Of a DNA stretch of 64,000 nucleotides, positions 22,690 to 59,564 are shown piece after piece. The stretch's first letter is position 1; each line of letters starts with the position of its first letter. Both the position numbers and the translations under genes were made by a program. The notes beneath the pieces are model-generated. The model saw nothing but the letters and a program-made list of their open reading frames with translations, ran no database searches and was not told where the DNA came from. The stretch lies in contig CAZJGG010000003.1 of NCBI GenBank assembly GCA_964545475.1, positions 757-64,756 of the forward strand, in the 5' to 3' direction. The DNA is from an uncultured Eubacteriales bacterium. GTDB taxonomy: Bacteria > Bacillota > Clostridia > Lachnospirales > JAISER01.

Positions 22690-22762
<73 letters not shown>

Positions 22763-22780
22763 TATTTTTATCCGCACAAC

Positions 22781-22853
22781 GGGTTACTAGCTCAGCTGGT
22801 AGAGCACTGGACTTTTAATCCAGTTGTCCCGGGTTCGAGCCCCGGGTAACTCA
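22781..22853 (+). tRNA. tRNA-Lys (anticodon UUU)
   Basis: Acceptor GGGTTAC/GTAACTC, anticodon stem-loop CTGGA-CTTTTAA-TCCAG, T arm CCGGG-TTCGAGC-CCCGG. The 3' CCA is not encoded. Confidence 0.92.
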
Positions 22854-22854
22854 T

Positions 22855-22894
22855 AAGCCTTACAAGTCTAACGATTTGTAAGGCTTTTGTTTTA
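22855..22894 (+). terminator. Intrinsic terminator after the tRNA pair
   Basis: AAGCCTTACAA, 9-nt loop, TTGTAAGGCTT, followed by TTGTTTTAT. Confidence 0.8.
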
Positions 22895-23147
22895 TATTTT
22901 ACGTTTTACAGTGGCGTAGAAGTTTCTCTAACAAACAAGACAACAGAATGTTTCCAAAAGATATTTATTTTTATTATATATATAAATATTTTAACTTACG
23001 TTTGCAAAAGGCACATACATAAACAATTATTTTTACAAAACAAGTAAATTATTGTTGCAATTTCGTTAAAAATATGTTATTTTAGTTACAGATAGTGAAA
23101 TTTTATTTTTCACTATTTTTTTTATTGCATGATAATTAAGGGGGTAT

Positions 23148-24077
23148 TTGATGCTAAGATATTTGGCAAAAACTTTATTCGCCGGAGTCGTGTCGTTGTT
23201 TGTGCTTATAACAATTACATTTTTTCTGGTACATGCTATTCCAGGGGGGCCGTTTAGTGCAGCGGAGGAAAAAAACGTTCCACAGTTTGTTATTGACCGC
23301 ATGAACGAGAAATTCGGACTTAACGACCCGGTATACGTACAATACGGTCGCTACATGAAAAGCATTTTAAAAGGAGATTTAGGTATTTCCTACAAAAAAC
23401 AAAATACAACAGTTAACGAAATTGTAGAGCAAGGCTTTCCGGTTTCCGCAAAGGTTGGAGCATGGGCTGTTTTAGTTGCCGTTATTGTGGGTATTATTTT
23501 AGGTATTTTATCTGCAATTTATAAAAATACATTTATCGACTGGTTTTGTAGAATTTTTGCTACAATTGGTGTATCGGTTCCGGGCTTTGTTATCGGTGTA
23601 TTTTTGTTATATTTCTTCGCAGTGTATTTAGGGCTTTTCAGAACTATGGGGCTACAATCTTGGAAAGATTACGTTCTTCCCGTTGCAGGGCTTTCGTTTA
23701 CTCCTATCGCTTATATTTCAAGGCTTATGCGCTCAAGCATGCTTGAAAATATGCAGCAAGACTACATAAGAACGGCTAGAGCAAAAGGTGTAAAAGAATT
23801 TTTTGTTATAGTAAAACATGCTTTAAGAAACTCAATTATTCCTATTGTTTCATATGTCGGACCATTAATAGCGGCTTTATTAACTGGCAGCTTCGTTATT
23901 GAGAGATTGTTTACAATACCGGGAATAGGTCGGTTTTTCGTAATGGGTATTACTGACAGGGATTATACTATAGTACTGGGTATGACCATATTCTTCGGCG
24001 GTTTGCTTATTCTTTGTAACATCCTTGTAGACGCTGTTTATGTAGTAATTGATCCGAGAATTAAATTTGACGAGTAG
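23148..24077 (+). CDS. oppB: Oligopeptide ABC transporter permease (OppB/DppB type)
   Basis: 309 aa, about 6 TM, with the binding-protein-dependent permease EAA-type loop (YIRTARAKG). Confidence 0.88.
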   Translation: MMLRYLAKTLFAGVVSLFVLITITFFLVHAIPGGPFSAAEEKNVPQFVIDRMNEKFGLNDPVYVQYGRYMKSILKGDLGISYKKQNTTVNEIVEQGFPVSAKVGAWAVLVAVIVGIILGILSAIYKNTFIDWFCRIFATIGVSVPGFVIGVFLLYFFAVYLGLFRTMGLQSWKDYVLPVAGLSFTPIAYISRLMRSSMLENMQQDYIRTARAKGVKEFFVIVKHALRNSIIPIVSYVGPLIAALLTGSFVIERLFTIPGIGRFFVMGITDRDYTIVLGMTIFFGGLLILCNILVDAVYVVIDPRIKFDE

Positions 24078-24085
24078 GTGATAAG

Positions 24086-25033
24086 ATGAGTGAAGTAGCA
24101 TATTCAATAGATAATATTAATATTTCTGATAATCTTTTTAACCCAATGCCCGAAGGACAGTCGGACATGGAAAAAATCGTAAGAAAAAGCAAGACGTTTT
24201 GGCAAGATGCATGGGGCAGATTTAAGAAAAACCCGTTAGCCATTGCTGGTCTTGTAATTCTTGTCATTATGGTTATTTTTGCAATACTAGGTCCAATACT
24301 TTCGCCTTATACATATGACCAACAGAATATTTTGAACCAATATCAATCTCCTAATGCGCAGCACTGGTTTGGAACAGATAAGTTCGGCAGGGATATTTTT
24401 GTAAGAATTGCTTATGGCGCAAGGATAAGCTTGGCAATTGGTTTTGCAGCGGCGGCTATAAACATTGTAATTGGTGTTATTTATGGCGGCGTTGCAGGTT
24501 ATTTTGGCGGCAAAATTGATATTATAATGATGCGTTTTGTAGACATTATTGCAGGTATTCCGTCTTTATGTTATGTTATCCTTATAATGCTTTATTTAGG
24601 CAGCAATATTACAAGTATATTGATTGCCATTTGCGTATCTTCATGGACGAGAACGGCTCGTGTTGTTCGTTCACAAGTTTTAACCCTTAGAGAACAAGAT
24701 TTTATTATGGCTGCTAGATGTATCGGTGAAGGTGATTTGTCGATTATTTTTAAGCACTTAATACCAAACAGCCTTGGGCCAATTATAGTTACAGTATCGT
24801 TTTTAATACCGGATGCCATTTTTACAGAAGCATTCTTAAGTTTTTTAGGTATCGGCATTAAAGTGCCAATGGCAAGCTGGGGCACTCTTGCAAATGATGC
24901 CATACCAACGCTTTCATCTTATCCTTATCTAATGTTTATTCCGGCAATTGCAATAAGCGTAACTATATTTGCGCTTAACTTTATCGGCGACGGCTTAAGA
25001 GACAGCCTTGACCCGAAACTTAAGAATAGATAA
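24086..25033 (+). CDS. oppC: Oligopeptide ABC transporter permease (OppC/DppC type)
   Basis: 315 aa with an OppC-type N-terminal extension and permease core. Confidence 0.88.
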   Translation: MSEVAYSIDNINISDNLFNPMPEGQSDMEKIVRKSKTFWQDAWGRFKKNPLAIAGLVILVIMVIFAILGPILSPYTYDQQNILNQYQSPNAQHWFGTDKFGRDIFVRIAYGARISLAIGFAAAAINIVIGVIYGGVAGYFGGKIDIIMMRFVDIIAGIPSLCYVILIMLYLGSNITSILIAICVSSWTRTARVVRSQVLTLREQDFIMAARCIGEGDLSIIFKHLIPNSLGPIIVTVSFLIPDAIFTEAFLSFLGIGIKVPMASWGTLANDAIPTLSSYPYLMFIPAIAISVTIFALNFIGDGLRDSLDPKLKNR

Positions 25034-25045
25034 GGGGGAATAGCG

Positions 25046-26050
25046 GTGAGTAATATACTTGAAGTTAAAAACTTAAAAACAACATTTTTTACTGAAGATG
25101 GAAAAGTACAAGCCGTTCGTGGCATTGATTTTAATATAAAAAAAGGCGAATCTGTGGGAATCGTTGGGGAATCCGGCTGCGGCAAAAGCGTTACAATGCT
25201 TTCGATTATGCGTTTATTGTCAAGCAACGCAAATTTTTCTGCCGATTACATAAACTTTGAAGGTGAAAACCTTATTAATAAGACCCGGGCGGATATGCGT
25301 GGCATACAAGGGAATCAGATAGGCATGATTTTTCAAGACCCTATGACGTCCTTAAACCCGGTTTTTACAATTGGAGATCAAATTTGCGAGCCTTTGAAGA
25401 TACATCAAAAATTAAAAGGTGCGGAAGCAAAGAAAAAAGCAGTGGAGCTTTTAAAGCTTGTTGGTATTCCCAGCCCAGAAAGCCGTTTAAAGCAATATCC
25501 TCATGAATTTTCCGGAGGTATGCGCCAAAGGGTTATGATTGCTATTGCCTTAAGTTGTAATCCAAGGCTTTTAATTGCAGACGAACCCACAACTGCACTA
25601 GACGTTACAATTCAAGCCCAAATTTTAGATCTTATGAACGAGCTTAAAGCAAAGCTTGATATGTCTATAATTATGATTACCCATGACTTAGGTGTTATCG
25701 CAAGCACATGCTCAAAGGTTATTGTAATGTATGGCGGTCTTATTATAGAAGAAGCCAGCGCAGACGAATTGTTTGAAAACGCTAAACACCCTTATACTTG
25801 GGGTCTTATAAATTCCTTGCCAAGAGTAACCGAGGGGGGCAAAAAAGAAAAGCTGTTCCCAATACCGGGAAGCCCGCCGGACTTACTTGCGCCACCCAAA
25901 GGCTGCCCTTTTGCGCCAAGATGCCAAAAGGCAATGATGATTTGTCAAGATTATATGCCTAATTTCTGTGATGTATCCGAGACTCATAAAGTCGCTTGTT
26001 GGCTTATGCATCCAAAGGCGAAAAATTTGGACGGAGGAAGATTGGCATGA
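25046..26050 (+). CDS. oppD: Oligopeptide ABC transporter ATPase (OppD type)
   Basis: GTG start. Walker A GESGCGKS, signature FSGGMRQR, Walker [13 protein letters not shown], and a C-terminal oligopeptide-type extension. Confidence 0.9.
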
Positions 26051-27015
26051 GCGAACAAATGATAGTTAAAAACCTAAAAAAACATTTCCCCATAAGAAAG
26101 GGCTTTTTTGGAGGGGAAAGCAAAGTTGCAAAAGCTGTTGATGATGTTAGCTTTACTATAAATAAAGGTGAAACATTAGGGCTTGTTGGTGAATCCGGCT
26201 GCGGTAAAACCACTGTAGGAAGGTGCATTTTAAAGCTGTATTCTTTAACCTCCGGAGAAATTTGGTTTAATGGCGTAGATATTTCAAAGTTTGACAGAAA
26301 TGAAATGCTGCCTTATCGCAAAAAAATACAGATGATATTCCAAGACCCATTTACCTCTTTGGATCCTCGTATGACCATAGGGCAAATTATCGGAGCACCT
26401 CTTGCTGTACACGGGCTTTACGAGGGGAGCGCAAGGCAGGATAGAATTAAGGAGCTTATTTCAGATGTAGGGCTTAAAAGCGACCATATTAACCGTTATC
26501 CCCATGAATTTTCCGGCGGACAGCGGCAAAGGATTGGCATTGCAAGGGCTTTGGCGGTTGAGCCTGAGTTTATTGTTTGCGATGAGCCGGTTTCCGCATT
26601 GGACGTTTCGATTCAAGCACAAATTATTAATTCTCTTGTGGAGTTCCAAAAGGAACTGGGGCTTACATATTTGTTTATTTCTCATGACCTTTCAGTTGTG
26701 CGATATATTTCTGATAAAGTAGGGGTTATGTATCTGGGTAACATGGTTGAATATGCTGAAGTTGGGGAGATGTATTCAAATATGCAGCATCCTTATTCAA
26801 AATCATTGTTTTCCGCTTTGCCGGAAGCAAACCCGAAAAAAGCAAGGGAAGCAAAACGCATAATTTTACAAGGAGATTTACCTTCGCCAATTAACCCGCC
26901 ATCGGGTTGCGCATTTAGGACGAGATGCAGCGAATGTATGCCTATTTGCAGCGAGCAAAAACCTGCTTTTAAAGACATTGGCGGCAATCACTTTGTTGCT
27001 TGTCATAAGTTCTAG
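26047..27015 (+). CDS. oppF: Oligopeptide ABC transporter ATPase (OppF type)
   Basis: I placed the start at ATG 26047, which overlaps the oppD stop as ATGA and has GGAGGA upstream. Contains GESGCGKTT, FSGGQRQR and IVCDEPVSALD. Confidence 0.9.
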   Translation: MSEQMIVKNLKKHFPIRKGFFGGESKVAKAVDDVSFTINKGETLGLVGESGCGKTTVGRCILKLYSLTSGEIWFNGVDISKFDRNEMLPYRKKIQMIFQDPFTSLDPRMTIGQIIGAPLAVHGLYEGSARQDRIKELISDVGLKSDHINRYPHEFSGGQRQRIGIARALAVEPEFIVCDEPVSALDVSIQAQIINSLVEFQKELGLTYLFISHDLSVVRYISDKVGVMYLGNMVEYAEVGEMYSNMQHPYSKSLFSALPEANPKKAREAKRIILQGDLPSPINPPSGCAFRTRCSECMPICSEQKPAFKDIGGNHFVACHKF

Positions 27016-27152
27016 TTATAACCGCTAAAGTGTAATTATTGTTACACTTTGGTTATAAAATATAATACCGTAGTAATTTACGGGAAATGGCGGCTTTGCC
27101 GCCGGGGGCTATTTATAATCTTGCTCCCTAAAAATAACAAGGAGGAAAAACA

Positions 27153-28829
27153 ATGAAAAAAAATGTAGCAATTTTATTGGCACTTGTATTGACAGTAGCT
27201 TCTTTTGCAGGTTGCGCAAGCAAGCCGGCTGCTCCGCCGGCAGATAGTGGGCAACCAACAGAATCCGCAAGCACAGGTGGAGAAAGCAGCGAAGCACCTG
27301 CTGAAAGCAGCGCCAAGCCAGCCAGTGCAACTTGGGCTTTTTCAAATGAAATTGAACAAATGGATCCGGCTCTTAGCAACTACTCAAGATCAAACATGAT
27401 GCTTAAAAACGTATTCGGAGGACTTTTCAGAGTTAACGAAGAAAACATTCCTGAAAAAGTTTATTGCGAAGATTACACTGTTGACGAAACAGGCACAAAG
27501 TATGAATTTAAAATTGTGCAGGGTGCTAAATGGTCCGACGGTTCTCCTCTTACAGCACATGACTTTGAATATAACATGAAACGTGTTGCAGACCCTAACA
27601 TAGCTTCAAAAGCGGCGGCTGATTCATTTTTCCTTAAAAACGCTGAAAGAGCTTTTAACGGAGAATGTTCTCTTGATGAAATCGGTGTAAAAGCTATTGA
27701 CGACACAACTTTACAAATTGAATTATCAGGGCCAACGCCATATTTCCTTTATGTATTAACTATGCCTTCTTACTTCCCGGTTAAAAAGGAAATTGTTGAA
27801 CAACAAGGCGATGCGTGGACAAAATCTCCTGACACTTACATAAGTAACGGTGCATTTATGGCAAAAGAAATTAGCCCTTTAAACTATACTTTTGTTAAAA
27901 ACCCTAACTTCGTTTTTGCTGATCAAGTAGGTTTAGAAGAACTTAAAATCGTTATTATGGATTCAAGAGAGGCTCACTTTGCAGCTTACAAAACAGGTGA
28001 CATTGATGTATCCGACTATTTAAGCGCAGAAGCTATATCTGAATATAAAGACTCAAGCGAATTGAAATTATCAGACAGAGTTAACCTTTATTATTTCGAC
28101 TTAAACAACTACAATAAAGAAATGTCTGACGTTAGAGTAAGAAAAGCTCTTTCAATGGCTATTGATAGAAAATTAATTATTAATAATATTATTGAAAAAT
28201 CACATCACCCAGCTTACAGTATAATACCTTACGGTATGCCGGACTTGCTTGACGGAAGCAAACAATTCCGTGATGTATCCGGAGATTTATTTACTGAAGA
28301 CGTTGAACAAGCAAAACAATTGCTTGCAGAAGCTGGTTATCCAAACGGAGAAGGACTTCCAGTTCTTAAATTCTTTACACAATCTAACCAGATTGACGTA
28401 GATACAGCGCAAGCTATGCAAGACATGTGGTTGTCTAACCTTGGGGTAAAAACAGAAATTACTACTTTTGAAGATAAAGCTTACTGGAGCGAACAAGACC
28501 AAATGCAATACGATATTTTCCGTGACGGCTTTACTTCAAGCTTCCCAGATCCATACGGCATGTTCTTAACATTTATTTGGCAAAAACAAGAAAGACAAAC
28601 TGGCTGGAAGAGCGAAGAATTTGAAAAATTAATGGCAGATTCTCGTGCAACTACAGACCAAGCAAAACGTGAAGAATATTTCTTAAAAGCTGAAAAACTT
28701 ATGATTGATGAGATGCCTATTATACCATTGTACCACATGGTTGATAACTTCCTTTGTAAGCCACACTTAAAAGGCATTTTCAAAACAGGCGGCGGCCACA
28801 TTGTATTTGAAAAGGCTTATGTAGAGTAA
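27153..28829 (+). CDS. Family-5 peptide-binding lipoprotein (OppA/MppA-like)
   Basis: 558 aa. Lipobox LTVASFAGC followed by a Pro/Ser/Ala/Glu linker. AAGGAGG SD is present. It lies after the ATPase genes. Confidence 0.85.
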   Translation: MKKNVAILLALVLTVASFAGCASKPAAPPADSGQPTESASTGGESSEAPAESSAKPASATWAFSNEIEQMDPALSNYSRSNMMLKNVFGGLFRVNEENIPEKVYCEDYTVDETGTKYEFKIVQGAKWSDGSPLTAHDFEYNMKRVADPNIASKAAADSFFLKNAERAFNGECSLDEIGVKAIDDTTLQIELSGPTPYFLYVLTMPSYFPVKKEIVEQQGDAWTKSPDTYISNGAFMAKEISPLNYTFVKNPNFVFADQVGLEELKIVIMDSREAHFAAYKTGDIDVSDYLSAEAISEYKDSSELKLSDRVNLYYFDLNNYNKEMSDVRVRKALSMAIDRKLIINNIIEKSHHPAYSIIPYGMPDLLDGSKQFRDVSGDLFTEDVEQAKQLLAEAGYPNGEGLPVLKFFTQSNQIDVDTAQAMQDMWLSNLGVKTEITTFEDKAYWSEQDQMQYDIFRDGFTSSFPDPYGMFLTFIWQKQERQTGWKSEEFEKLMADSRATTDQAKREEYFLKAEKLMIDEMPIIPLYHMVDNFLCKPHLKGIFKTGGGHIVFEKAYVE

Positions 28830-28859
28830 TTTTAATACTTTAATTTTAAATTAATATCA

Positions 28860-28888
28860 GGGCGTGTTTGAATTTTTCAGACACGCCC
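28860..28888. repeat. Hairpin with stem GGGCGTGT...ACACGCCC, related to the one at 20872
   Basis: GGGCGTGTTTGAATTTTTCAGACACGCCC. No T tract follows. It sits between the binding-protein gene and ldcA. Confidence 0.55.
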
Positions 28889-28937
28889 GATTAAGGATTA
28901 TTAGAAAAATATTGCCATAAATGGAGGTCAGTTAATT

Positions 28938-29873
28938 ATGCAAAAACCCAAAGCTTTAAAAAAGGGTGACACTATTGGCTTAGTTGCACCGTCCGGCCCA
29001 GTTAAGGATTTAAGCCAAATTGATAAGGCTGTTAAAATTATTGAAGAGTGGGGCTTTAAAGCAAAGCTTGGAAAAGCTGTTAAAGAGCAGTATGGTTATA
29101 TGGCAGGGCGTGAAGAAGGCCGTGTTGCGGATATTCATGAAATGTTTGCAGACGACAGCGTTGACGGCATTTTCTGTATAAGAGGGGGGTATGGTACACC
29201 TCGAATTGCAGGGATGCTTGATATGGATTTAATAAAGAAAAATCCAAAGGTGTTCGTTGGATACAGTGATATTACAACACTGCTAATAATGCTTGCGCAA
29301 CAAGGGGATATGGTTTCTTTCCATGGCCCAATGCCTACATCTGATTTCACTAGTGATAAATTCGGGGAATATTCAAAAGATAGTTTATTAAATACGGTTA
29401 CATCCACAGCACCTTTAGGGGAACTTAAAAACCCAGAAGGGCACGAACTTCAATGTTTATCCCCAGGGGTTGTAACAGCGCCTATTATTGGCGGAAACTT
29501 AACATTAATCGGCTTAACTATGGGAACACCTTATGAAATAGATTTAAAAGATAAAATATTGTTAATTGAAGATATAAGCGAAGAACCTCATAAAATAGAC
29601 GGCCGTCTTTGCCAGCTTAAAAACGCCGGCAAACTTGATGAATGCGCTGGTTTTATTATTGGGGATTTTAACGATGCAATTCCTTATAACACAAACCCAA
29701 GTCTTTTATGGGAAGAGGTTATTAACGATTTAATAATTCCAACTAAAAAACCTGTTTTAGGTAATTTACGAGCAGGTCACTGCGAACCAAAAATTACAGT
29801 GCCTTTCGGTGTGCCAGTTACTCTTGATGCCACAAATAAAAAGATTATTTGCAATGAAAGTTTTTGCATTTAA
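28938..29873 (+). CDS. ldcA: LD-carboxypeptidase (S66 peptidase, LdcA/YkfA-like)
   Basis: 311 aa. Shows the typical S66 layout: IGLVAPSGP at the N-terminus, the GYSDITTLL nucleophile region, and a C-terminal GH motif. Confidence 0.85.
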   Translation: MQKPKALKKGDTIGLVAPSGPVKDLSQIDKAVKIIEEWGFKAKLGKAVKEQYGYMAGREEGRVADIHEMFADDSVDGIFCIRGGYGTPRIAGMLDMDLIKKNPKVFVGYSDITTLLIMLAQQGDMVSFHGPMPTSDFTSDKFGEYSKDSLLNTVTSTAPLGELKNPEGHELQCLSPGVVTAPIIGGNLTLIGLTMGTPYEIDLKDKILLIEDISEEPHKIDGRLCQLKNAGKLDECAGFIIGDFNDAIPYNTNPSLLWEEVINDLIIPTKKPVLGNLRAGHCEPKITVPFGVPVTLDATNKKIICNESFCI

Positions 29874-29887
29874 TAGGAGGCTTTAAA

Positions 29888-31018
29888 TTGAGCTTTGAAA
29901 CTTATGCCGAAATTAATTTAGATAATATAACCCATAATATTACCGCCCTTAAAAAACATGTGGGAAATGCGGAGGTTATGGCTGTTTTAAAGGCAAACGC
30001 TTATGGGCTTGATGCGCCATCAATTTTTAAACATTTGTGCTCAATAGGGGTAAAGCGGTTTGCTGTTGCAAATTTTAGAGAAGCTATGGAGCTTAGGCAG
30101 ATAGATTCTCAAGTACCAATTCTTATTTTTGGAAACATTAATCCGGAAAATATGGAAACGGCGATTAATAATAATTTAACAATTACAGTTTTTTCTAAAG
30201 AGTTTTGGGAAATTTTGAAACAAAAAATAGACAAAAACGTTAATGTGCATATAAAACTTAACACGGGCTTTAACCGTTTAGGCTTTGAATGCGATGACGA
30301 AAGTGTTAAAATAATAAAAGAAATTGCAAACAATCCTTTTGTAAATACAGAAGGGGTATATTCCCATCTTGCCCTTGGAAGCGAGGAAAACGACAAGGCG
30401 CAATTTGACTTGTTTACCGATATGGTTTCAAGGCTTGAAAATGAGGGAATAAAATTTAAGTTTAAGCATATTGCTGATAGCATTTCCGCAGTGACATACA
30501 AATGGTCACACCTTGATATGGTTCGCCTTGGTGCGGTTATGTACGGGCTTAAAGCCAATTATCCCGGGTATGATGAATTGGGGCTTAAAGGTACTGTAAG
30601 GCTTTATTCAAGCGTATCCCAAGTTAGAAAAATTAAAAAAGGAGCAGGTATTTCTTACGACTATTTGTTTTGCGCCCCAGAAGATATGACCGTAGCCACA
30701 GTGGCGTTTGGTTATGCCGACGGTTACCCCAGAAATTTAGGCAGAGAAAACGGCTTTGTGCTTATTCATGGGCAAAAAGCTACTATTCTTGGTATAATGT
30801 GTATGGATCAGTGCGTTGTAGACGTTACTCATATTTCTGATGTGAGAGTTAACGATGAAGTGCTTCTTTATGAAACAGAAGATAAGTCGCCGGTTTCAGT
30901 AGCTTCTGTTGCGCTGTTGGCAGGGACAAACAAAAACGGCTTGCTTTCAGGTATAACTAAGAGGGTTGCGAAAGTTTATATTAAAAATTATGAAAGATTA
31001 TCGTCGGAGCAGTTATAA
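29888..31018 (+). CDS. alr: Alanine racemase (PLP-dependent)
   Basis: I placed the start at TTG 29888, with TAGGAGG 8 nt upstream. The PLP-lysine motif AVLKANAYG is present. The product is about 376 aa. Confidence 0.85.
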   Translation: MSFETYAEINLDNITHNITALKKHVGNAEVMAVLKANAYGLDAPSIFKHLCSIGVKRFAVANFREAMELRQIDSQVPILIFGNINPENMETAINNNLTITVFSKEFWEILKQKIDKNVNVHIKLNTGFNRLGFECDDESVKIIKEIANNPFVNTEGVYSHLALGSEENDKAQFDLFTDMVSRLENEGIKFKFKHIADSISAVTYKWSHLDMVRLGAVMYGLKANYPGYDELGLKGTVRLYSSVSQVRKIKKGAGISYDYLFCAPEDMTVATVAFGYADGYPRNLGRENGFVLIHGQKATILGIMCMDQCVVDVTHISDVRVNDEVLLYETEDKSPVSVASVALLAGTNKNGLLSGITKRVAKVYIKNYERLSSEQL

Positions 31019-31052
31019 ATGTTAATAAATATATTTAAAAAGAAGGCTTGAA

Positions 31053-32243
31053 ATGAAATTAAATGAAATAAACAGGCAGGCTGATTTAATGTTTCCGCTG
31101 TTAACAGAGCTGAGAAGGCATTTACATATAAATCCAGAGCTTGGACAGCAGGAATTTATGACCCAAAAATTTATAATGGAGTTTCTTCAAAATGAGGGAA
31201 TCCCTTGTGAAAAAATTGCCGATACCGGAGTTATTGCTTGGGTTAAAGGAAACGCACCCGGCAGAGTTGTTGCCGCAAGAGCGGACATTGATGCCTTGCC
31301 GATTTTAGAGGATGACGGAGCAGCGTATTGCTCTGTAAACAAGGGAGTTATGCACGCTTGCGGTCATGATGCCCATACAGCCATAAATATGGGTTTGGCT
31401 AAATTTTTTAATGATAATAAAGAATCATTTCATGGTACGGTAAAATTCTTTTATCAGCCTGCAGAGGAAACTGTTGGCGGCGCAAGGCGCATGATTGAGG
31501 CAGGTTGCATGGAAAACCCGAAAGTTGATTATGTAATAGGGTTGCATGTTATGCCTTATATATATTATAATCAAGTGGAAGTAAAACACGGTCCTCTTAA
31601 CGCTTCAACAAACACAGTAAGACTTACTGTAAGAGGAAAAAGCGGACATGGGGCATACCCTGACATATGCGTTGATGCCATTATGATTGCGGCGCAAATT
31701 ATTGTGTCTTTACAATCAGTAGTAAGCAGAAATATTTCCCCCCTTGATTGCGCTGTTTTAACATTTGGCAAAATTAACGGAGGAAAAGCCGGCAACGTTA
31801 TTGCCGATGAGGTGGAGCTAGTTGGAACTTTGCGTTCTTCCGGGCCCCATGTGGAAAAAATTATGCTGGAAAAAGTAAGGACAATAGCAACGGGCATTGC
31901 TGCGGCTATGGGTGGCGAATGTATTATGAAGCTTGGGGGAGACGGTTATTTACCCCTTGTTAACGACGATGAGATTATTGATTTAATAACGGAAAACGCC
32001 GTGGAGTATTTAGGCGCAGAAAACGTTAATTTTAAGCCTGTTATGAGCATGGGTGGGGAAGATTTTTCTTTCTTTAACGCTAATACAAGAGGTGCATTTT
32101 ATAGCTTGGGTTGCCGTGTTCAGGGCAGAGAACCTTATGGGTTACATACAAAGCAATTTGATATTGATGAACGATGCTTGAAAACAGGGCTTGTTCTGCA
32201 AGCCATGAATATATATAAATTATTAGCATATGGCAAACTCTAA
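31053..32243 (+). CDS. M20D-family amidohydrolase (N-acyl amino acid / peptide amidohydrolase)
   Basis: 396 aa. Contains ARADIDALPI, HACGHDAH and FYQPAEE motifs of the M20D/ILR1-type family. Confidence 0.8.
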   Translation: MKLNEINRQADLMFPLLTELRRHLHINPELGQQEFMTQKFIMEFLQNEGIPCEKIADTGVIAWVKGNAPGRVVAARADIDALPILEDDGAAYCSVNKGVMHACGHDAHTAINMGLAKFFNDNKESFHGTVKFFYQPAEETVGGARRMIEAGCMENPKVDYVIGLHVMPYIYYNQVEVKHGPLNASTNTVRLTVRGKSGHGAYPDICVDAIMIAAQIIVSLQSVVSRNISPLDCAVLTFGKINGGKAGNVIADEVELVGTLRSSGPHVEKIMLEKVRTIATGIAAAMGGECIMKLGGDGYLPLVNDDEIIDLITENAVEYLGAENVNFKPVMSMGGEDFSFFNANTRGAFYSLGCRVQGREPYGLHTKQFDIDERCLKTGLVLQAMNIYKLLAYGKL

Positions 32244-32399
32244 AAACCCCATTTCGCCATTTTTTTGGCAAATTTTCCGTTTTGCTGTGTCAGCGAGAAA
32301 CGCCCATACAATTGATAGTATGAACGTTCCTCGCTTCCTTTCAAAACGAAAAATTTGCTCAAAAATCTGACGAAAGCGAGTTTTTAGAGGTTGCCTATA
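32238..32399. repeat. Palindromic (MITE/REP-like) intergenic repeat, copy A
   Basis: About 162 bp of imperfect palindrome centred near 32318. It is homologous to 54001-54182. It begins at the M20D stop codon and ends at the SD of the next gene. Confidence 0.85.
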
Positions 32400-32412
32400 A
32401 AGGAGATTAAAC

Positions 32413-33210
32413 ATGAAGATTTTTTTAAGCTGTGATATTGAGGGCACTAACGGAATTGCACATTGGGATGAAACTGAAAACGACAAAGCGCCTTACAAAT
32501 ATTGGGCGGACGTAATGACAAAAGAAGTTAACGCCGTTTGCAATGGTATTAACAATGCTTCTAGTGATTGCCAAATTTTTGTTAAAGACGCTCATGGCAG
32601 CGGTAGAAATCTTGACCATCAAATGCTTCCATTAAACGTTACTTTAAACAGAAGCTGGGCAAGACACCCATATTCTATGATGTACGGTATTGATTCTTCC
32701 TTTGATGCAACAATATTTTCCGGCTATCACAGCGGTGCAGCGAACAACGGTAATCCTCTTGCCCACACAATGAACGGGCAAATTATATATTTAAAAATTA
32801 ACGGCATGTATATTAGCGAATGTATAATGAACTATTATTCTTCGCTTTATAATGGCGTTCCTCTTGTTATGGTAGCCGGGGACGAAGCTCTTTGCGAATC
32901 AATTAAAAAAATTGAGCCTAACATTTACACTGTAACCAGCTTTGTGGGATGCGGCGGAAGCGTTACTTCTGAACACCCGGAAGTAACAAGAAAAAAAATA
33001 ATGGAGACAGCAGAAATTGCTGTTAAAAACCGTTCAAAAATGAGCGCTAAACTTCCAGAGGAGTTTAAAGCAGAAGTTTACTTTAAAACACATATGCAAG
33101 CTTCAAGAGCTACGTTTTACCCAGGGGCTTATAAAGTTACCGACCATAGCGTTGGCTTTGACACAAAAGATTACTTTGAATTCTTGAAATTTTTTATGTT
33201 TGTAAGCTAA
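32413..33210 (+). CDS. M55-family D-aminopeptidase (B. subtilis DppA family)
   Basis: 265 aa. Contains MKIFLSCDIEGTNGI, VKDAHGSG, GYH and VPLVMVAGD, which align to the B. subtilis DppA pattern. Confidence 0.8.
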   Translation: MKIFLSCDIEGTNGIAHWDETENDKAPYKYWADVMTKEVNAVCNGINNASSDCQIFVKDAHGSGRNLDHQMLPLNVTLNRSWARHPYSMMYGIDSSFDATIFSGYHSGAANNGNPLAHTMNGQIIYLKINGMYISECIMNYYSSLYNGVPLVMVAGDEALCESIKKIEPNIYTVTSFVGCGGSVTSEHPEVTRKKIMETAEIAVKNRSKMSAKLPEEFKAEVYFKTHMQASRATFYPGAYKVTDHSVGFDTKDYFEFLKFFMFVS

Positions 33211-33260
33211 CTGTAATTTATATATAAACAAAAGACAAATAATTAATAGGAGATATGTTA

Positions 33261-34583
33261 ATGGACTATAAAATTCATAGCAAAAACCTGCCTAACGACA
33301 AATTCTTTACAGTAAACCAAAACGGAAATATGGAATTTAATAAGTGCGACGTTGTGGAGCTTGCTAAGGAATACGGCACGCCTTTATATGTTGTAAATGA
33401 AGACGGAATCCGTGAAAAATGCCAGATAGTTAAAAAAGGCTTTATGAATAAATATGACAACACTTTGGCGCTTTACGCAAGCAAAGCTTTTAGTTGCACT
33501 GAAATTTATAGAATATTAAAAGAAGAAGGTTTGGGTGTAGACGTTGTATCCGGCGGAGAGCTTTACACGGCTTACAAAGCTGGTTTCCCTATGGACAAAG
33601 TTTATTTCCACGGAAACAATAAATCCGCTGCAGAATTAGAACTTGCCCTTGACTATAAAGTTGGCAGATTAGTTGTAGATAGCTATCACGAGCTAGAAGT
33701 TTTAAATGAAATTGCTAAAAAACGTGGCGTAAAGCAAGAAATTCTTTTAAGAATTTCTCCAGGTATAGATATTCACTCCCACGAATACTTAAAAACAGGG
33801 GTTTTAGACTGTAAATTCGGCTTCCCAATTGAAACCGGGTTTGCCCATGATGTTTGCCTTAAAGCCTCTCAATATGAAAACTTAGAATTGGTTGGTATTC
33901 ATTGCCATATAGGCTCTCAAATATTACTTACAGATAGTTTTACTGATGCAATTTTAGTTATGGCTAACTTTATTAAAGAAATTAAAGATAAATACGGTAT
34001 TTGCCTTAAAGAGTTAAACGTGGGCGGCGGTTACGGCGTGCGCTTTACTGATGATTCTGAATTTTTAGATGTTTGTAGCCTTTGGGAATTAATGATGAAT
34101 GCTCTTTACAAATTTTGCGACGAAAACTCCCTTGACATTCCAAAAGTCCTTATTGAGCCGGGAAGATGGATTATTTCTGAAAGCGGCATAACCCTTTATA
34201 AAACAGGTACTGAAAAAGATATTAAAGGTGTTCGCAAGTATATAAGCGTAGACGGCGGCATGGCAGACAACCCAAGAGTGACTTTATACGGCGCGAAATA
34301 TCAAGCTCTTTGTGCAAACAAAATGAATGAGCAGGAAACTCAGTTGGTTTCAATCGCCGGAAGATGCTGTGAAACAGGGGATATCCTCATTAAAGACATT
34401 GTTATGCCAGATCTTGAGCCAAACGATGTATTGGCGGTTCTTTCAACCGGGGCTTACAACTACGCAATGTCCAGCAATTATAACAGGCTTCCGAGACCTG
34501 CTGTTGTTATGATTAAGGACGGAAAGCCAAGAATAATTGTAAAACGGGAAACATATGAAGATATTATCCGCAATGACGTATAA
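33261..34583 (+). CDS. lysA: Diaminopimelate decarboxylase
   Basis: About 440 aa fold-III PLP decarboxylase (YASKAF, GGGYGV, CETGD, GAY). I chose ATG 33261 as the start; AGGAG lies 8 nt upstream. Confidence 0.85.
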   Translation: MDYKIHSKNLPNDKFFTVNQNGNMEFNKCDVVELAKEYGTPLYVVNEDGIREKCQIVKKGFMNKYDNTLALYASKAFSCTEIYRILKEEGLGVDVVSGGELYTAYKAGFPMDKVYFHGNNKSAAELELALDYKVGRLVVDSYHELEVLNEIAKKRGVKQEILLRISPGIDIHSHEYLKTGVLDCKFGFPIETGFAHDVCLKASQYENLELVGIHCHIGSQILLTDSFTDAILVMANFIKEIKDKYGICLKELNVGGGYGVRFTDDSEFLDVCSLWELMMNALYKFCDENSLDIPKVLIEPGRWIISESGITLYKTGTEKDIKGVRKYISVDGGMADNPRVTLYGAKYQALCANKMNEQETQLVSIAGRCCETGDILIKDIVMPDLEPNDVLAVLSTGAYNYAMSSNYNRLPRPAVVMIKDGKPRIIVKRETYEDIIRNDV

Positions 34584-34600
34584 TATTTAAATAATTAAGA

Positions 34601-34636
34601 AATAGTGGTCGGCTTGGTTATGCCGCCACTATTTTT
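34601..34636 (+). terminator. Intrinsic terminator after lysA
   Basis: AATAGTGGTCGGC, loop, GCCGCCACTATT, followed by TTTT. Confidence 0.75.
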
Positions 34637-34655
34637 ATAGAACGGAGATAATCTT

Positions 34656-51150: not shown

Positions 51151-52062
51151 ATGGGAGTGAATGAATTGTATCATAATAAATTTCTTGTTTTAGGCGGAGA
51201 TATGAGAAACATCTCACTTTCTAGTCATTTGCAGGAAGATAACAACAAAGTTATGGTTTACGGCTTTTCCTCGCTTTCACCTGAAGAATTTCCACATCTT
51301 ATGTTTTCAAAAAATATGCAAAAGGCAATAAAAAATGCGGAAGTGGTTATCGGACCGATACCGTGCTGCAGCGAAAAAAACATTTTAAACACTCCTTTTC
51401 ATAAACAGTCAATTTCAATAGATTCAATTTTTGAGGCTATGGACAGCAGACAGATTTTTGTTGCAGGCAGAATTGACAAAGAAGTTTTTGAAAAGGCGAA
51501 AGAGAAAAAAATAATTATTTATGACGTGCTTGAAAGAAACGAAATGGCCATTTTAAACGCAATTCCTACAGCGGAAGGCGCTATACAAATTGCGTTTGAA
51601 CAAACAAAAATCACTTTGCATGGTGCAAATATTTTAGTCATCGGTTTTGGGCGGATTGGTAAAATATTATCAAAGATGCTCAAAGGAATCGGGGCAAACG
51701 TTTTTGGTGCTACCAGGCGTTATGACGATTATGCTTCAATGGTAAGTTATGGCTACAATCCATTGATGCTTTCAGAATTAAACGGATACCTTTCTAAAAT
51801 GGACGTTATTATTAATACTGCGCCTCATGTTCTTATTGATAAAAGCAACATTAAATTTATTAAAAAGGATTGCTTAATAATTGATTTAGCCTCTGCGCCT
51901 TACGGGGTGGACTTTGAGGAATGCAAAAGAGAGGGTATAAATGCGGTTTTGGCAGGCTCTCTGCCCGGCAAGGTTGCGCCTATAAGTGCCGCAAAATATA
52001 TTAAGGAGACAGTTTATAATATTTTATGCGAAAGGATTGAAAAATATGGATTTGAAAAATAA
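51151..52062 (+). CDS. dpaA: Dipicolinate synthase subunit A
   Basis: 303 aa. Contains the NAD-binding VIGFGRIGK and is followed by an overlapping dpaB. The exact start is uncertain. Confidence 0.85.
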   Translation: MGVNELYHNKFLVLGGDMRNISLSSHLQEDNNKVMVYGFSSLSPEEFPHLMFSKNMQKAIKNAEVVIGPIPCCSEKNILNTPFHKQSISIDSIFEAMDSRQIFVAGRIDKEVFEKAKEKKIIIYDVLERNEMAILNAIPTAEGAIQIAFEQTKITLHGANILVIGFGRIGKILSKMLKGIGANVFGATRRYDDYASMVSYGYNPLMLSELNGYLSKMDVIINTAPHVLIDKSNIKFIKKDCLIIDLASAPYGVDFEECKREGINAVLAGSLPGKVAPISAAKYIKETVYNILCERIEKYGFEK

Positions 52063-52624
52063 AACCATAGGTTTTGCGATAACAGGCTCGTTTTGTACAC
52101 ATGATAAAATTATACCAGTAGTTGAAAAGTTAGTAAATTCAGGAGCAAATGTTATTCCTATAATATCAGAAATAACAAGTTGCACAGATACAAGGTTCGG
52201 CACGGCTGCGGATTTTAAGAAGAAGCTTGTTGAAATTACTAAAAATGAAATTATTGATTCTGTTGTTACAGCAGAGCCCATTGGTCCTAAAAAACTTTTG
52301 GATATTTTGGTTATTGCGCCGGCTTCCGGCAATACTATAGCTAAATTAGCTAATGCGATAACAGATTCTACAGTTACAATGGCTGCTAAGGCTCATTTAC
52401 GCAATGAAAGCCCTCTTGTAATTGGAATTTCCACAAACGACGGCCTTGGAGGAAACGCAAAAAACATCGGTCTTTTGCTTAATATAAACAATATTTATTT
52501 TGTCCCCTTTGGGCAGGATGATGCTATAAAGAAATCCAAATCATTAGTAGCGGATTTTAATTTAATTCCCGATACTCTTGAAAAAGCATTGGAAGGAAAG
52601 CAAATTCAGCCACTTTTGATTTAA
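52046..52624 (+). CDS. dpaB: Dipicolinate synthase subunit B (flavoprotein)
   Basis: I placed the start at ATG 52046, overlapping dpaA by 17 nt. Contains IGFAITGSFCT and APASGNTIAKLANAITD motifs. Confidence 0.85.
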   Translation: MDLKNKTIGFAITGSFCTHDKIIPVVEKLVNSGANVIPIISEITSCTDTRFGTAADFKKKLVEITKNEIIDSVVTAEPIGPKKLLDILVIAPASGNTIAKLANAITDSTVTMAAKAHLRNESPLVIGISTNDGLGGNAKNIGLLLNINNIYFVPFGQDDAIKKSKSLVADFNLIPDTLEKALEGKQIQPLLI

Positions 52625-54000: not shown

Positions 54001-54182
54001 CCTTCCTTAGAGCCTGTTTAGAATCTCCATTTCAGTGTCTTTTCGGCAAATTTTCCGAATCGCTGCGTCAGTGGCAAACGCCCATACTTCTTCTAGTATG
54101 AACGTTCACCACTTCCTTGCGATTCAAAAAATTTGCTCAAAAATCCACTAAAAGCGAGATTCCAAACAGGCTCTTAGAAAGG
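54001..54182. repeat. Palindromic (MITE/REP-like) intergenic repeat, copy B
   Basis: About 182 bp of imperfect palindrome. The outer arms are CCTTCCTTAGAGCCTGTTTAGAATCTC and GAGATTCCAAACAGGCTCTTAGAAAGG. The core is homologous to 32238-32399. Confidence 0.85.
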
Positions 54183-54272: not shown

Positions 54273-55661
54273 TTACTTAATAGATGCAAATGACTTGCAA
54301 AGCTCATACAACGTAGTTATTCCTGCTCCTGTTGCCCCTATGTTTTGGAATTCCCATTTTTGAGTGCTTACCCAAGCTGTACCAGCAATATCAATATGCA
54401 TCCAAGGCAGGTCTTCATTAAAACATGAAAGAAATTGCCCAGCCGCTATTGTGGCGCAGCCCTCTTCAGAGCTGTTTTTTATGTCAGCGGCACGGCTTTC
54501 ATTTAGTTTGGCATATTCATCAAAAGTAGGAAGGCGCCAGTATTGCTCTCCGGTGTCTTTAGAAGCATTGTTAAGTCTGTTGAAAAATTCATCGTCATTA
54601 GAAAGCACAGCGGCAGTTGTAAACCCAAACATTAACACAACTCCCCCTGTTAATGTGGCAATATCCACAATTCTAGTTGCTCCGGCTTTTGATACTGCAT
54701 AAGTTATGGCATCTGCCAAGACAAGCCGCCCTTCGGCATCAGTATTGGCGATTTCAATGGTTTTTCCGCTCATGGAAGTAACAACGTCTCCAACCAAGAA
54801 GCTATCTCTTGATATGCGGTTTTCCGCCGCCGGAATAACAGCAGTAACATTAACGTGAACTTTATTTTTAGCAAGAGCAGTTATACAGCCCCAAACAGCC
54901 GCCGCCCCTGCCATATCTCCTCTTATGCCTTTCATAGAAAGAACAGGCTTTAAGCAATATCCTCCTGTGTCGCAGGTTATGCCCTTGCCTACAAGCCCTA
55001 TAACTTCTTTGCTCTCCGGCGCACCTTTATAGGTTAAAACCGCCATACGAGGAAGGTTTCCTGCGCTTCCGCCAACAGCCAGCAAAGCATTCATACCCAG
55101 CTCTTTCATTTGTTTATCATCTAATATTTCAACAGTGCATCCGGCTTTTTCAGCCAAATCAGCCATTCTTGCCGTCATTGTATCAGGAGTAAGCATGTTT
55201 GCCGGTTCGTTTACCATATCCCGAGCTATTAAAACGCTTTCTGCTATAGCAGATATTTCAGACAGCTTATTAAAGTCTTTTTCCCCATTTGGTAAATCGA
55301 GGTAAACAGTAAGTTCGTTTATTGTGTTAGTGCTTTTCCAGTTTTTCGGTTTGTAAAGGGTAAGTGCAACGCTTTCGTATGCAAAAACGGCGGCTTTTTC
55401 ACCAAAAAGTTCAGCTAAAGCTTTAAGGCGAATAACAACGGATTTCCCTCCGTTTAACTGAACATGTTTTATACCTGCCGCAACAGCACGCCTTACTAAC
55501 AGTGAGGAAAGTTTTTCCTTATCCCCCAAACATACCGTAGCGCAAGGCATTTGTCCGTCATTAAAAGAGCAGTTAATATTAAGCAAATTATTATTTTCAT
55601 TGTTTTTTAAGGCAAAATCAATTTGCCATTGTGCAGCTTCGTTGTTCCAGTAAGTAATCAT
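54273..55661 (-). CDS. pepA: Leucyl aminopeptidase (M17)
   Basis: 462 aa. Contains VGKGITCDTGGY and NTDAEGRLVLAD, the M17 signature. Confidence 0.92.
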   Translation of the reverse strand: MITYWNNEAAQWQIDFALKNNENNNLLNINCSFNDGQMPCATVCLGDKEKLSSLLVRRAVAAGIKHVQLNGGKSVVIRLKALAELFGEKAAVFAYESVALTLYKPKNWKSTNTINELTVYLDLPNGEKDFNKLSEISAIAESVLIARDMVNEPANMLTPDTMTARMADLAEKAGCTVEILDDKQMKELGMNALLAVGGSAGNLPRMAVLTYKGAPESKEVIGLVGKGITCDTGGYCLKPVLSMKGIRGDMAGAAAVWGCITALAKNKVHVNVTAVIPAAENRISRDSFLVGDVVTSMSGKTIEIANTDAEGRLVLADAITYAVSKAGATRIVDIATLTGGVVLMFGFTTAAVLSNDDEFFNRLNNASKDTGEQYWRLPTFDEYAKLNESRAADIKNSSEEGCATIAAGQFLSCFNEDLPWMHIDIAGTAWVSTQKWEFQNIGATGAGITTLYELCKSFASIK

Positions 55662-55677
55662 TTAAACATCTCCATAA

Positions 55678-56637
55678 TTATATATGCAAGCAAGCTACGA
55701 AATGCCCCGGTTCTGGCTCAAAAGATGGAATTTTATAAGCCTTGCAGTTGTCTGCGCATTTTGGGCATCTTGTTTGAAATGGGCAGCCAACAGGCAAATT
55801 AACAGTGCTTGGAATATCACCCTGTAAAATCTTACGCTCGCTTTGCCTTGTTGGGTCTGGTATGGGCACGGCGGATAAAAGAGCTTTTGTATATGGGTGC
55901 ATAGGGTTTTTATAAAGCATCTCTTTCGGCGCCATTTCAACAATAGAGCCTAAATACATAACCGCTATACGGTCTGAAATCATTTCAACCACGCTTAAAT
56001 CGTGGGAAATAAACAGATAAGTAAGGGCATAATCTTTTTGCAATTGTTGCATTAAATTAAGCACTTGCGCCTGAATTGAAACGTCCAGAGAAGAAACTGG
56101 CTCATCAGCAATTATAAGCTTTGGGCGCACAGTTAATGCTCTTGCAATACCGATACGCTGGCGCTGACCGCCGGAAAACTCATGAGGCCACCGTCTTGCA
56201 TGTTTCTCATTTAAACCTACAATTTTCAAAAGTTCCCTTGCCGCTTGCAAACGCTCTTTAGAGCTCATTTTTGTATGCACAAGCAAAGGTTCTGCAACAA
56301 GTTCTTCAACTCTCATTCGGGGGTTTAAAGAACCGCTAGGGTCTTGGAATATCATTTGCATATCTTTGCGTAAAGGTCTTACTTCCCTTTCGCTTAAATT
56401 TGATATGTTTAAATCGTCGAAGGTTATTTCCCCGGAATCTGGCTTCATAAGCCTGTTTATAAGCCTGCCTGTTGTAGATTTTCCACAGCCGGATTCTCCT
56501 ACAACGGAAAATGTTTCCCCGGGATAAATCTCAAAGCTAATATCATTTACCGCATGGACAAAACGAGCTTTGCCAAATAAACTTTTCCCGGCAGGGAACT
56601 TTTTAACAACATTTTTTACGGTAACAAGGGGTTTCAT
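55678..56637 (-). CDS. Peptide ABC transporter ATPase (OppF/DppF type)
   Basis: Contains [17 protein letters not shown] and IIADEPVSSLD. Confidence 0.88.
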   Translation of the reverse strand: MKPLVTVKNVVKKFPAGKSLFGKARFVHAVNDISFEIYPGETFSVVGESGCGKSTTGRLINRLMKPDSGEITFDDLNISNLSEREVRPLRKDMQMIFQDPSGSLNPRMRVEELVAEPLLVHTKMSSKERLQAARELLKIVGLNEKHARRWPHEFSGGQRQRIGIARALTVRPKLIIADEPVSSLDVSIQAQVLNLMQQLQKDYALTYLFISHDLSVVEMISDRIAVMYLGSIVEMAPKEMLYKNPMHPYTKALLSAVPIPDPTRQSERKILQGDIPSTVNLPVGCPFQTRCPKCADNCKAYKIPSFEPEPGHFVACLHI

Positions 56638-57653
56638 TTAACCGCCTCCTTTGCGCCGTTTTCTGTATGCCAGCAGCGGCATTTTCTTGTTTGCCCATAT
56701 TCAAGAAGAACAGGTTCTTCCTTATGGCACTGCTCCGTTGTAAATGCGCATCTAGGTGCAAATTTACATCCAGTAGGCATTGCGGATAAATCCGGCACAC
56801 TGCCGGGAATAGAGGGTAGTGTAGTTACTCCAGAACCAAGCTTCGGAACGGAAGCAATAAGCCCTTTAGTATAAGGGTGCATAGGTTCTGCAAAAAGCTG
56901 GTTTACAGAAGCTTCTTCAACAATTCTCCCTGCATACATAACCATAACCCGGCTGCACATTTCCGCAACAATACCTAAGTCATGGGTAATTAATATTATT
57001 CCGGCGTTATATTCGTTTTTAATGTTGCGCATTAGGTCTAAAATTTGAGCTTGAATCGTAACGTCAAGGGCGGTAGTTGGTTCGTCTGCAATAAGCAATT
57101 TTGGGTTACAGCTCATAGCCATAGCAATCATAACCCTTTGGCTCATGCCCCCAGATAACTGGTGAGGGTAGCTTCGCATAGTTACGCTTGGTACAGGTAT
57201 TCCAACTTGTCTAAGCATATGTTCAGCGTGTTCTGTCGCCTGTTTTTTGATGTAATCCATATGCAGACGAATAGCTTCAACCATTTGCGCTCCAATGCGC
57301 ATAGAAGGATTTAACGAAGTCATAGCTTCCTGAAAAATCATTGAAATGCTTTTGCCCCTGACAGAACGCATTTCTCGCTCACTGCATGTAAGTAGGTCTT
57401 TTCCCTCAAATATAATTTCTCCTCCGGCAATACTGCCTGATGTACTTTTAAAAAGCTGCATAATAGATAATGACGTTACGGATTTTCCACAGCCGGACTC
57501 ACCAACGAGCCCTACAATTTCCCCGGGGTAAACCTGAAAGCTGACATCGTCAATAACCACAACTTTAGACTTTTTCCCTGTTTTAAATTCTGTACGCAGA
57601 TTTTTTATATCAAGCAAAGGCTGGTCTTTTTTTACTAAAGAATTTTCGTTCAT
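56634..57653 (-). CDS. Peptide ABC transporter ATPase (OppD/DppD type)
   Basis: Contains [17 protein letters not shown] and [11 protein letters not shown]. It overlaps the next gene by 4 nt. Confidence 0.88.
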
Positions 57654-57664
57654 AATTTTCCCCC

Positions 57665-58561: not shown

Positions 58562-58571
58562 TCCTCCTTCC

Positions 58572-59492: not shown

Positions 59493-59564
59493 ATCTGTCC
59501 CTCCTTCATAATTCTTAATAAAACAATCCGGCGGAAAACCACCGGATTGTATAGAGCATCGGAA

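Follow-up and report, generated by a model that had tools for sequence, protein, structure and literature searches.

The gut is rich in peptidoglycan fragments, which influence host immunity; the consumers of their peptide part, and the ways in which they use it, are known mainly from Escherichia coli and Bacillus. In E. coli, murein tripeptide recycling involves MppA-OppBCDF, LdcA, MpaA (an M14 peptidase), YcjG, PepD and Mpl, the genes for which are scattered; most of the tripeptide is re-ligated whole by Mpl. In Bacillus subtilis, the dppABCDE-ykfABCD genes specify a pathway for the uptake and catabolism of murein peptides (PMC2954226). Here, a cluster of ten genes from an uncultured Eubacteriales bacterium of the gut is compared with these systems. 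The cluster lies in a stretch of 64,000 nucleotides (nt) of contig CAZJGG010000003.1 (GenBank assembly GCA_964545475.1), referred to below as the window; coordinates given without a contig or locus label are those of the window. Judged from its predicted products, the cluster probably specifies a salvage and catabolic route for peptidoglycan stem peptides that supplies meso-diaminopimelate (DAP) and lysine, a reading held with fair rather than high confidence. Its genes are as follows:

23151..24077, + strand: oppB-like permease (BPD_transp_1, 129 bits)
24086..25033, + strand: oppC-like permease (OppC_N and BPD_transp_1)
25046..26050, + strand: oppD-like ATPase (ABC_tran and oligo_HPY)
26047..27015, + strand: oppF-like ATPase (ABC_tran and oligo_HPY)
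27153..28829, + strand: family-5 solute-binding lipoprotein, OppA-like, divergent (SBP_bac_5, 265.6 bits, E 1e-78)
28938..29873, + strand: S66 LD-carboxypeptidase, YkfA/LdcA-like (Peptidase_S66 N- and C-terminal domains)
29888..31018, + strand: alanine racemase (alr), second paralogue (TIGR00492, 304.7 bits, cut-off 168)
31053..32243, + strand: M20D amidohydrolase of an S66-associated subfamily (TIGR01891, 337.7 bits, cut-off 153.75)
32413..33210, + strand: M55 D-aminopeptidase, DppA-like (Peptidase_M55, 249.7 bits, E 4e-74)
33255..34583, + strand: diaminopimelate decarboxylase LysA (TIGR01048, 466.9 bits, cut-off 297.9)

As in the dpp-ykf region of B. subtilis, a peptide ATP-binding cassette importer with a family-5 binding protein, an M55 enzyme (DppA) and an S66 enzyme (YkfA) stand in one co-directional block. 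Unlike that region, the cluster has neither a YkfB epimerase nor a YkfC-type NlpC/P60 enzyme and includes an M20D enzyme, an extra alanine racemase and LysA; its binding protein is OppA-like, 28–29% identical to proteins in the DppE position, and is encoded last in the transporter; and searches of its host genome found no dapB. With the E. coli MppA/LdcA/MpaA system it shares the import of stem peptides by an Opp permease, an S66 enzyme and, in the route proposed here, the release of meso-DAP from gamma-D-Glu-DAP, but its genes form a single cluster ending in LysA, and M14 and Mpl were not found in this genome. A third likeness is to the N-acetyl-LL-DAP deacetylases, which belong to the same family as the M20D enzyme and whose chemistry, the hydrolysis of an N-acyl group at the L-centre of DAP, is the one proposed for it; unlike them, the window's M20D falls in another clade than the M20Ds that neighbour dapD or asd-dapA-dapB, and dapD was not found in its genome. 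Tannerella forsythia, an auxotroph for a wall component, scavenges N-acetylmuramic acid (MurNAc) (PMC6721243). The bacterium studied here would resemble it in having a normal wall, a step for a wall building block that was not found and, as proposed here, a supply of that block from other bacteria; the scavenged part would be meso-DAP rather than the sugar MurNAc, and the auxotrophy is deduced from a draft genome. By sequence, the cluster has the importer, S66 and M55 of known murein-recycling systems, while its products match neither a known amidase for the DAP-releasing step nor MppA. A full-text literature search of partial coverage turned up no account of a module combining S66, M20D and lysA, nor of a natural DAP auxotroph that meets its need by salvaging peptides.

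Enzymes and binding protein of the cluster

All ten open reading frames (ORFs) lie on the + strand between 23151 and 34583, and each has a strong family match in Pfam and NCBIfam. An earlier note on this DNA, written from the letters and an ORF list, had described ten co-directional genes at 23148-34583 and had named the S66, alanine racemase, M20D, M55 and LysA enzymes; the arrangement and every one of these families were borne out, with slightly later starts than first listed for oppB (23151), oppF (26047) and alr (29888) in the gene call on the identical public contig. The S66 protein has no evident signal peptide, and in an alignment with solved S66 enzymes its catalytic triad falls in GYSD (Ser), IED (Glu) and GH (His). 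Against the LdcA equivalog model NF008424 it scored 156.7 bits (cut-off 378); it is thus a member of S66 that does not reach the threshold for an LdcA equivalog. It is 42–47% identical to the S66 genes that follow the dpp operons of Bacillaceae, i.e. those in the YkfA position, and among solved structures it matched Lmo1638 (126 bits), MccF (112 bits) and E. coli LdcA (86 bits). The alanine racemase is the less canonical of two copies, the other (on contig C40; 392 bits) being 34% identical to it. The M20D protein carries Peptidase_M20 and M20_dimer domains, is the only M20D in its genome, and has YxeP and the Staphylococcus aureus structure 4EWT as its nearest solved relatives. The M55 protein can be aligned over its whole length with B. 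subtilis DppA (1HI9) and keeps the metal-ligand positions Asp8, Glu10, His60, His104 and Glu133 (residue numbers as reported for the DppA structure); it scored 130 bits against the NCBIfam DppA equivalog, for which the cut-off is 430. LysA, a single match genome-wide and thus the only copy, scored 339 bits against the diaminopimelate decarboxylase (DAPDC) of Corynebacterium glutamicum, and its pyridoxal phosphate (PLP)-binding lysine and EPGR, CE(T)GD and SSNYN-R motifs align with those of solved DAPDCs.

The earlier note had also pointed out that the cluster contains no epimerase or NlpC/P60 gene, which is correct, and had concluded that the downstream chemistry must differ from that of B. 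subtilis. This conclusion holds for the genome as a whole: neither an M14 peptidase of the MpaA type nor a convincing L-Ala-D/L-Glu epimerase of the YkfB type was found genome-wide (one weak MR_MLE_C match, 35.7 bits, lies in a 425-amino-acid frame), and the sole NlpC/P60 protein has a signal peptide, as expected of a secreted wall hydrolase, leaving no cytoplasmic member. The M20D enzyme is therefore the only candidate for the release of DAP.

The assignment of the binding protein to an MppA/OppA class stood only in part. Its N-terminus carries the lipobox FAGC and it is an OppA-like family-5 lipoprotein, but it scored 251 bits against the curated OppA model (cut-off 947) and 203 bits against that for MppA (PRK09755; cut-off 1098), and its relatives stand in generic opp operons, so the MppA part was not upheld. 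Among the other transporter subunits, the best NCBIfam models for the oppB-like permease were Opp3B and OppB, both scoring under their cut-offs, and the oppF product has 322 amino acids in the gene call on the public contig, its start overlapping the oppD stop by 4 nt.

DAP supply, lysine fermentation and the proposed route

Family searches of the host genome found neither dapB nor the acetylase form of dapD (dapD_Ac), nor a DapA above cut-off, and tblastn with the proteins of family relatives found no Asd, DapA or DapB. A DapA-like gene on contig C101 was rejected as DapA, being NanA-like and accompanied by sugar-transport-like genes; a weak Asd-like tblastn match (24% identity, E 0.05) was disregarded. 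The flanks of the asd-dapA operon of a sister genus (G001) and of the asd-dapA-dapB genes of a further relative (G002, which retains all three) are present here on assembled contigs, without those genes beside them. In G001 (97% complete) the asd-dapA operon is assembled, dapB was not found, and no remnant of it is present. The fact that the syntenic positions are assembled without the genes, together with the failure to find any trace of dapB in G001, argues against a simple assembly gap. The MurE of the host has the DNPR motif seen in DAP-adding ligases, which marks DAP specificity, and DapF is present between purA and guaA. The direct reuse of tripeptide by an Mpl-type ligase was rejected; MurC is present, but Mpl was not found in the genome, the only MurC/Mpl-like gene being MurC itself (444 bits), which scored under the Mpl cut-off. 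Since dapB was found neither here nor in the sister genus and the syntenic sites are assembled, the lineage is most likely unable to make DAP, a compound that its wall nevertheless appears to require. This context, the strongest for the salvage reading, is absent from the earlier note.

The earlier note had remarked that lysA is not preceded by a lysine riboswitch (L-box) and had proposed a check for a second, L-box-controlled lysA. When this was run, lysA proved to be single-copy and the genome's only L-box was found elsewhere (locus L007:1501-1745, contig C32:11156-11400), in front of kal-kce-kdd-kamA-kamD-kamE-atoA-atoD, the pathway from lysine to acetate and butyrate. The 3' strand of the closing helix of the riboswitch (AGCGCTATT) doubles as the 5' arm of a terminator hairpin, which has a long T-run and lies just before the ribosome-binding site. 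Since AGCGCTATT is common to the closing helix and the terminator, the binding of lysine should prevent termination, and the element is predicted to act as an ON switch. ON switches were reportedly predicted for kamA operons in early riboswitch genomics. In a class sample of 399 scored Clostridia genomes, Kce, a marker of lysine fermentation, was above cut-off in 30, compared with 7 of the 8 genomes with an S66-linked lysA; within the same sample, S66 was recorded in 16 of the 30 Kce-positive genomes and in 79 of the other 369. As the genomes with Kce and S66 are kin, representing perhaps three lineages, this link to lysine fermentation is suggestive only.

In the proposed route, the Opp importer and its lipoprotein would take up free stem peptides (tri-, tetra- and pentapeptides, and perhaps cross-linked dimers) derived from other bacteria or from turnover of the cell's own wall. 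The cytoplasmic S66 enzyme would cut the L,D bond between meso-DAP and D-Ala (the D-Ala on the L-centre of DAP), and the M55 enzyme would remove the N-terminal D-Ala from D-Ala-D-Ala and possibly also the D-Ala on the D-centre of DAP in cross-linked fragments; the extra alanine racemase would then convert D-Ala into L-Ala. The M20D enzyme, acting as an N-acyl-L-amino-acid amidohydrolase, would free meso-DAP from gamma-D-Glu-DAP, which is itself an N-acyl-L-amino acid and hence the kind of substrate that this family cleaves; E. coli uses MpaA (M14) for this reaction and Bacillus uses YkfC (NlpC/P60). The meso-DAP released could be used by MurE for the cell's own wall, or be converted by LysA into L-lysine for protein synthesis and for the riboswitch-controlled lysine fermentation operon; no fate is assigned to L-Ala-D-Glu. 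With dapB and dapD not found, most of the cell's DAP may come from this route.

A wider claim can be built on this: that the organism is a natural DAP auxotroph with a DAP-type wall, living off the murein peptides of others for both its wall and its lysine fuel, and that the M20D subfamily adds to MpaA and YkfC a third gamma-D-Glu-meso-DAP amidase, homologous to neither. All of this being true together is doubtful, and the joint claim is made tentatively. If the more general reading of the cluster as a salvage route is right, it would represent, in anaerobic Firmicutes, a compact route by which murein peptide yields D-Ala, meso-DAP and lysine and, via the lysine fermentation operon, short-chain fatty acids; the M20D subfamily would be a candidate for a new family of enzymes that release DAP. 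That reading would also provide a reason for lysA having survived the loss of the rest of its pathway, and a probable reliance on neighbouring bacteria for a building block of the wall would explain why such lineages resist cultivation.

Recurrence of the gene set in other genomes

For comparison, the 80 nearest S66 loci with their 10-kb flanks were searched with all ten cluster proteins. The best S66 match was only 55% identical, so the lineage is an isolated one. Within 10 kb of S66, lysA was found at 6 of these loci, M20D at 10, opp genes at 11 and M55 at 10, in differing orders. The arrangement lysA-S66-M20D, with inserts in some cases, was seen in Anaerovirgula, Natronincola, Geosporobacter, Alkaliphilus and Bacillota metagenome-assembled genomes (MAGs). 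In Fusobacteriaceae MAGs, Maledivibacter and one Bacillota MAG, S66 adjoins oppBCDF and a binding protein; at the Fusobacteriaceae loci the permeases are 62–68% and the binding protein 44% identical to those of the window. The third recurring arrangement is the Bacillus-type dppA-E-ykfA block. The murein-peptide reading put forward in the earlier note is thus supported, in that S66, M20D, lysA, alr, M55 and the transporters neighbour each other in other Clostridia, in varied orders.

The sister genus G001 (locus L090:3600-13700) has, on the minus strand, alr, M20D and an M15 D-Ala-D-Ala dipeptidase, with an M19 dipeptidase adjoining; about 1 kb further on, past a 247-amino-acid minus-strand ORF, the plus strand carries a Gate-domain pair, S66, lysA and an S11 DD-carboxypeptidase. 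Nearly all of the annotated enzymes in this neighbourhood act on D-Ala or on wall-type bonds, and the pair of Gate-domain membrane proteins is possibly a small-peptide transporter. The G001 genes truly orthologous to the M20D (64%) and M55 (71%) genes of the window stand apart from this neighbourhood, next to each other, and a second lysA lies elsewhere in that genome. In Anaerovirgula multivorans (L017:2336-12144), a sigma-54 activator is followed by lysA, a PLP enzyme, a dicarboxylate symporter, a Gate pair, S66 and M20D; the presence of this enhancer-binding activator directly upstream of the only lysA of the genome hints at a catabolic style of regulation. The only lysA of Geosporobacter subterraneus (L115/L117; G043:C64:19756-21008) also adjoins S66 and matches in two adjacent frames, covering model positions 7-107 and 98-416, which suggests a frameshift or a sequencing error. 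Another genome, from the same taxonomic order (L091, G010:C20), carries oppBCDF-S66 with an M55 gene ∼2 kb downstream; dapB and lysA were not found in it, its MurE is of the DNPR type, and it may be a second DAP scavenger.

A quick maximum-likelihood tree placed every S66-linked M20D, including that of the window, in one clade (SH-aLRT 96) with 13 members, most of them S66-linked. The M20Ds beside dapD_Ac or asd-dapA-dapB lay outside it, even in genomes having both kinds. This matters since N-acetyl-DAP deacetylase is itself an M20D enzyme. The Alkaliphilus-type genomes, in which asd-dapA-dapB-dapD_Ac is present and two to eight M20D paralogues occur in each, have the dapD_Ac branch and hence need such a deacetylase. 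The window's genome has a single M20D, and dapD_Ac was not found in it, which makes a deacetylase reading unlikely here.

Transcript layout and alternative readings

The features that bound or interrupt the cluster are:

22690..22886, + strand: two tRNA genes and their intrinsic terminator, the upstream boundary
23092..23136, + strand: candidate control region, an inverted repeat overlapping promoter-like hexamers (function predicted)
27016-27058, 27068-27083 and 27089-27103, + strand: three hairpins in the spacer between oppF and the binding-protein gene, all without a T-run
28860..28888, + strand: 13-bp hairpin 3' of the binding-protein gene, without a T-run
32244..32412, no strand assigned: copy of a dispersed palindromic repeat of ∼150 nt between the M20D and M55 genes (blastn)
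34598..34640, + strand: intrinsic terminator closing the cluster (hairpin and T-run), absent from the consensus-scan list

The tRNA genes (22690-22762 and 22781-22853; Rfam 72 and 68 bits) end in a terminator of 14 pairs followed by a T-run (22855-22886). The AT-rich upstream region and the downstream terminator (placed at 34601) that had been claimed previously are both real, the former consisting of 261 nt with 22% G+C and the latter being the hairpin at 34598-34640, beyond which lies an unrelated S-adenosylmethionine methyltransferase gene. Within the AT-rich region, before oppB, a perfect inverted repeat, ATAGTGAAA-N7-TTTCACTAT, occupies positions 23092-23116 and is unique genome-wide at up to 2 mismatches; it is overlapped by a promoter-like TTCACT-16-GATAAT (23109-23136) that ends 15 nt before oppB. 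An Rfam scan found no riboswitch or other regulatory RNA family within or before the cluster. The gaps between the genes are, in order, 8, 12, -4, 137, 108, 14, 34, 169 and 44 nt, and a terminator scan with ViennaRNA folds found no hairpin with a T-run in any of them. The 137-nt spacer after oppF folds at -45.9 kcal/mol, and its three hairpins could be attenuators or sites of RNA processing or stabilisation. The 169-nt spacer before M55 folds into one long hairpin (-50.4 kcal/mol) formed by the palindromic repeat, of which more than 40 partial or full copies (80–94% identity by blastn against the own genome) are spread over many contigs. A further copy lies near window positions 54040-54145.

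Whether these spacers divide the cluster bears on its being read as one salvage route. The cluster may be broken into several transcripts by the hairpins that follow oppF and the binding-protein gene and by the repeat before M55, and this weighs against that reading. So do several other observations. The genome is a draft in 148 contigs, 95% complete, and dpaA-dpaB, encoding dipicolinate synthase, is intact at window positions 51151-52624; since the substrate of that enzyme comes from DapA, the failure to find asd and dapA may reflect an assembly gap, the alternative being that dipicolinate synthesis for spores is defunct. The argument from dapB is firmer than that from asd and dapA. As regards the linkage of lysA, adjacency to S66 is rare across the class, being seen only here and in one other genome (G331) among the matches listed (150 of 358 for lysA, in the 399 genomes), and the Alkaliphilus-type genomes whose sole lysA is linked to S66 and M20D possess the full asd-dapA-dapB-dapD set, so that the linked lysA is there also biosynthetic and the linkage not purely catabolic. 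The related genomes are moreover kin, and counts of co-occurrence therefore overstate independence. Finally, no homologue of the binding protein was found in a scan of close relatives, and its nearest homologues in the class sample are only 31–38% identical and stand in generic oppBCDFA operons, in which none of the cluster's enzymes were found; its specificity is thus not arguable from homology.

This last point is one of those that favour a reading in which an amino-acid-fermenting anaerobe uses the cluster for general oligopeptide uptake and general peptidase activity, with lysA and alr present by chance or through loose co-regulation and no link to murein. Several further Opp-like binding proteins are encoded in the genome, the window itself contains another opp operon, accompanied by a leucyl aminopeptidase gene, and the S66, M20D and M55 families all include members with non-murein substrates. 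Such a reading does not explain why three of the five enzymes target D-amino-acid or L,D bonds, which are absent from ordinary food peptides, why the sole LysA was retained though dapB was not found, or why other genera, with varied transporters and gene orders, share a set comprising S66, the M20D clade, lysA, alr and M55, M15 or S11; it is considered unlikely. Still less probable is that the M20D enzyme is an N-acetyl-LL-DAP deacetylase and LysA the last step of a remnant of lysine biosynthesis, S66, M55 and opp being unrelated neighbours. The membership of that deacetylase in M20D and the use of the acetylase branch (dapD_Ac) by Alkaliphilus-type genomes with the lysA-S66-M20D linkage would fit this, but with dapD_Ac and dapB not found here the deacetylase would have no substrate, and where genomes have both kinds of M20D it is another clade that adjoins dapD_Ac or asd-dapA-dapB. 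The preference of the S66 protein for MccF-like structures over LdcA among its solved matches might point to an MccF-type immunity enzyme acting on Opp-imported compounds, the cluster then serving the detoxification or use of a peptide-nucleotide or D-amino-acid antibiotic. This is highly improbable, given the identity of the protein to S66 genes in the YkfA position of Bacillaceae and the fact that lysA, alr and M55 would have no role in such immunity.

A different kind of alternative concerns the organisation of the cluster: two or three separate units of related function and independent regulation, namely an opp operon (23151-28829) and an enzyme operon (28938-34583), the latter maybe split before M55. 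Stable hairpins in the 137-, 108- and 169-nt spacers, promoter-like hexamers at 27039-27066 (TTGTTA-16-TATAAT, within the spacer after oppF) and at 28912-28939, and the occurrence of the enzyme module without opp in other genomes are all consistent with this idea. However, the spacer hairpins all lack a T-run, promoter-like matches across the scan were about as frequent as in shuffled sequence (45 found, 41 expected), and the 169-nt spacer, being a copy of a dispersed repeat, represents an insertion and not a dedicated control region. Separate units are thus a serious possibility, but one that we would not bet on.

The second Opp-like operon of the window (54273-61181, minus strand) contains a gene for a binding protein 25% identical to that of the cluster, two permease-sized and two ATPase-sized ORFs, and after these the leucyl aminopeptidase gene. 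In three genomes of one Clostridia family (L161, L164 and L167), asd-dapA-dapB is convergent with an immediately adjoining oppBCDFA operon, the binding protein of which is one of the closest homologues of that of the cluster; S66 genes lie 10–16 kb away in two of the three.

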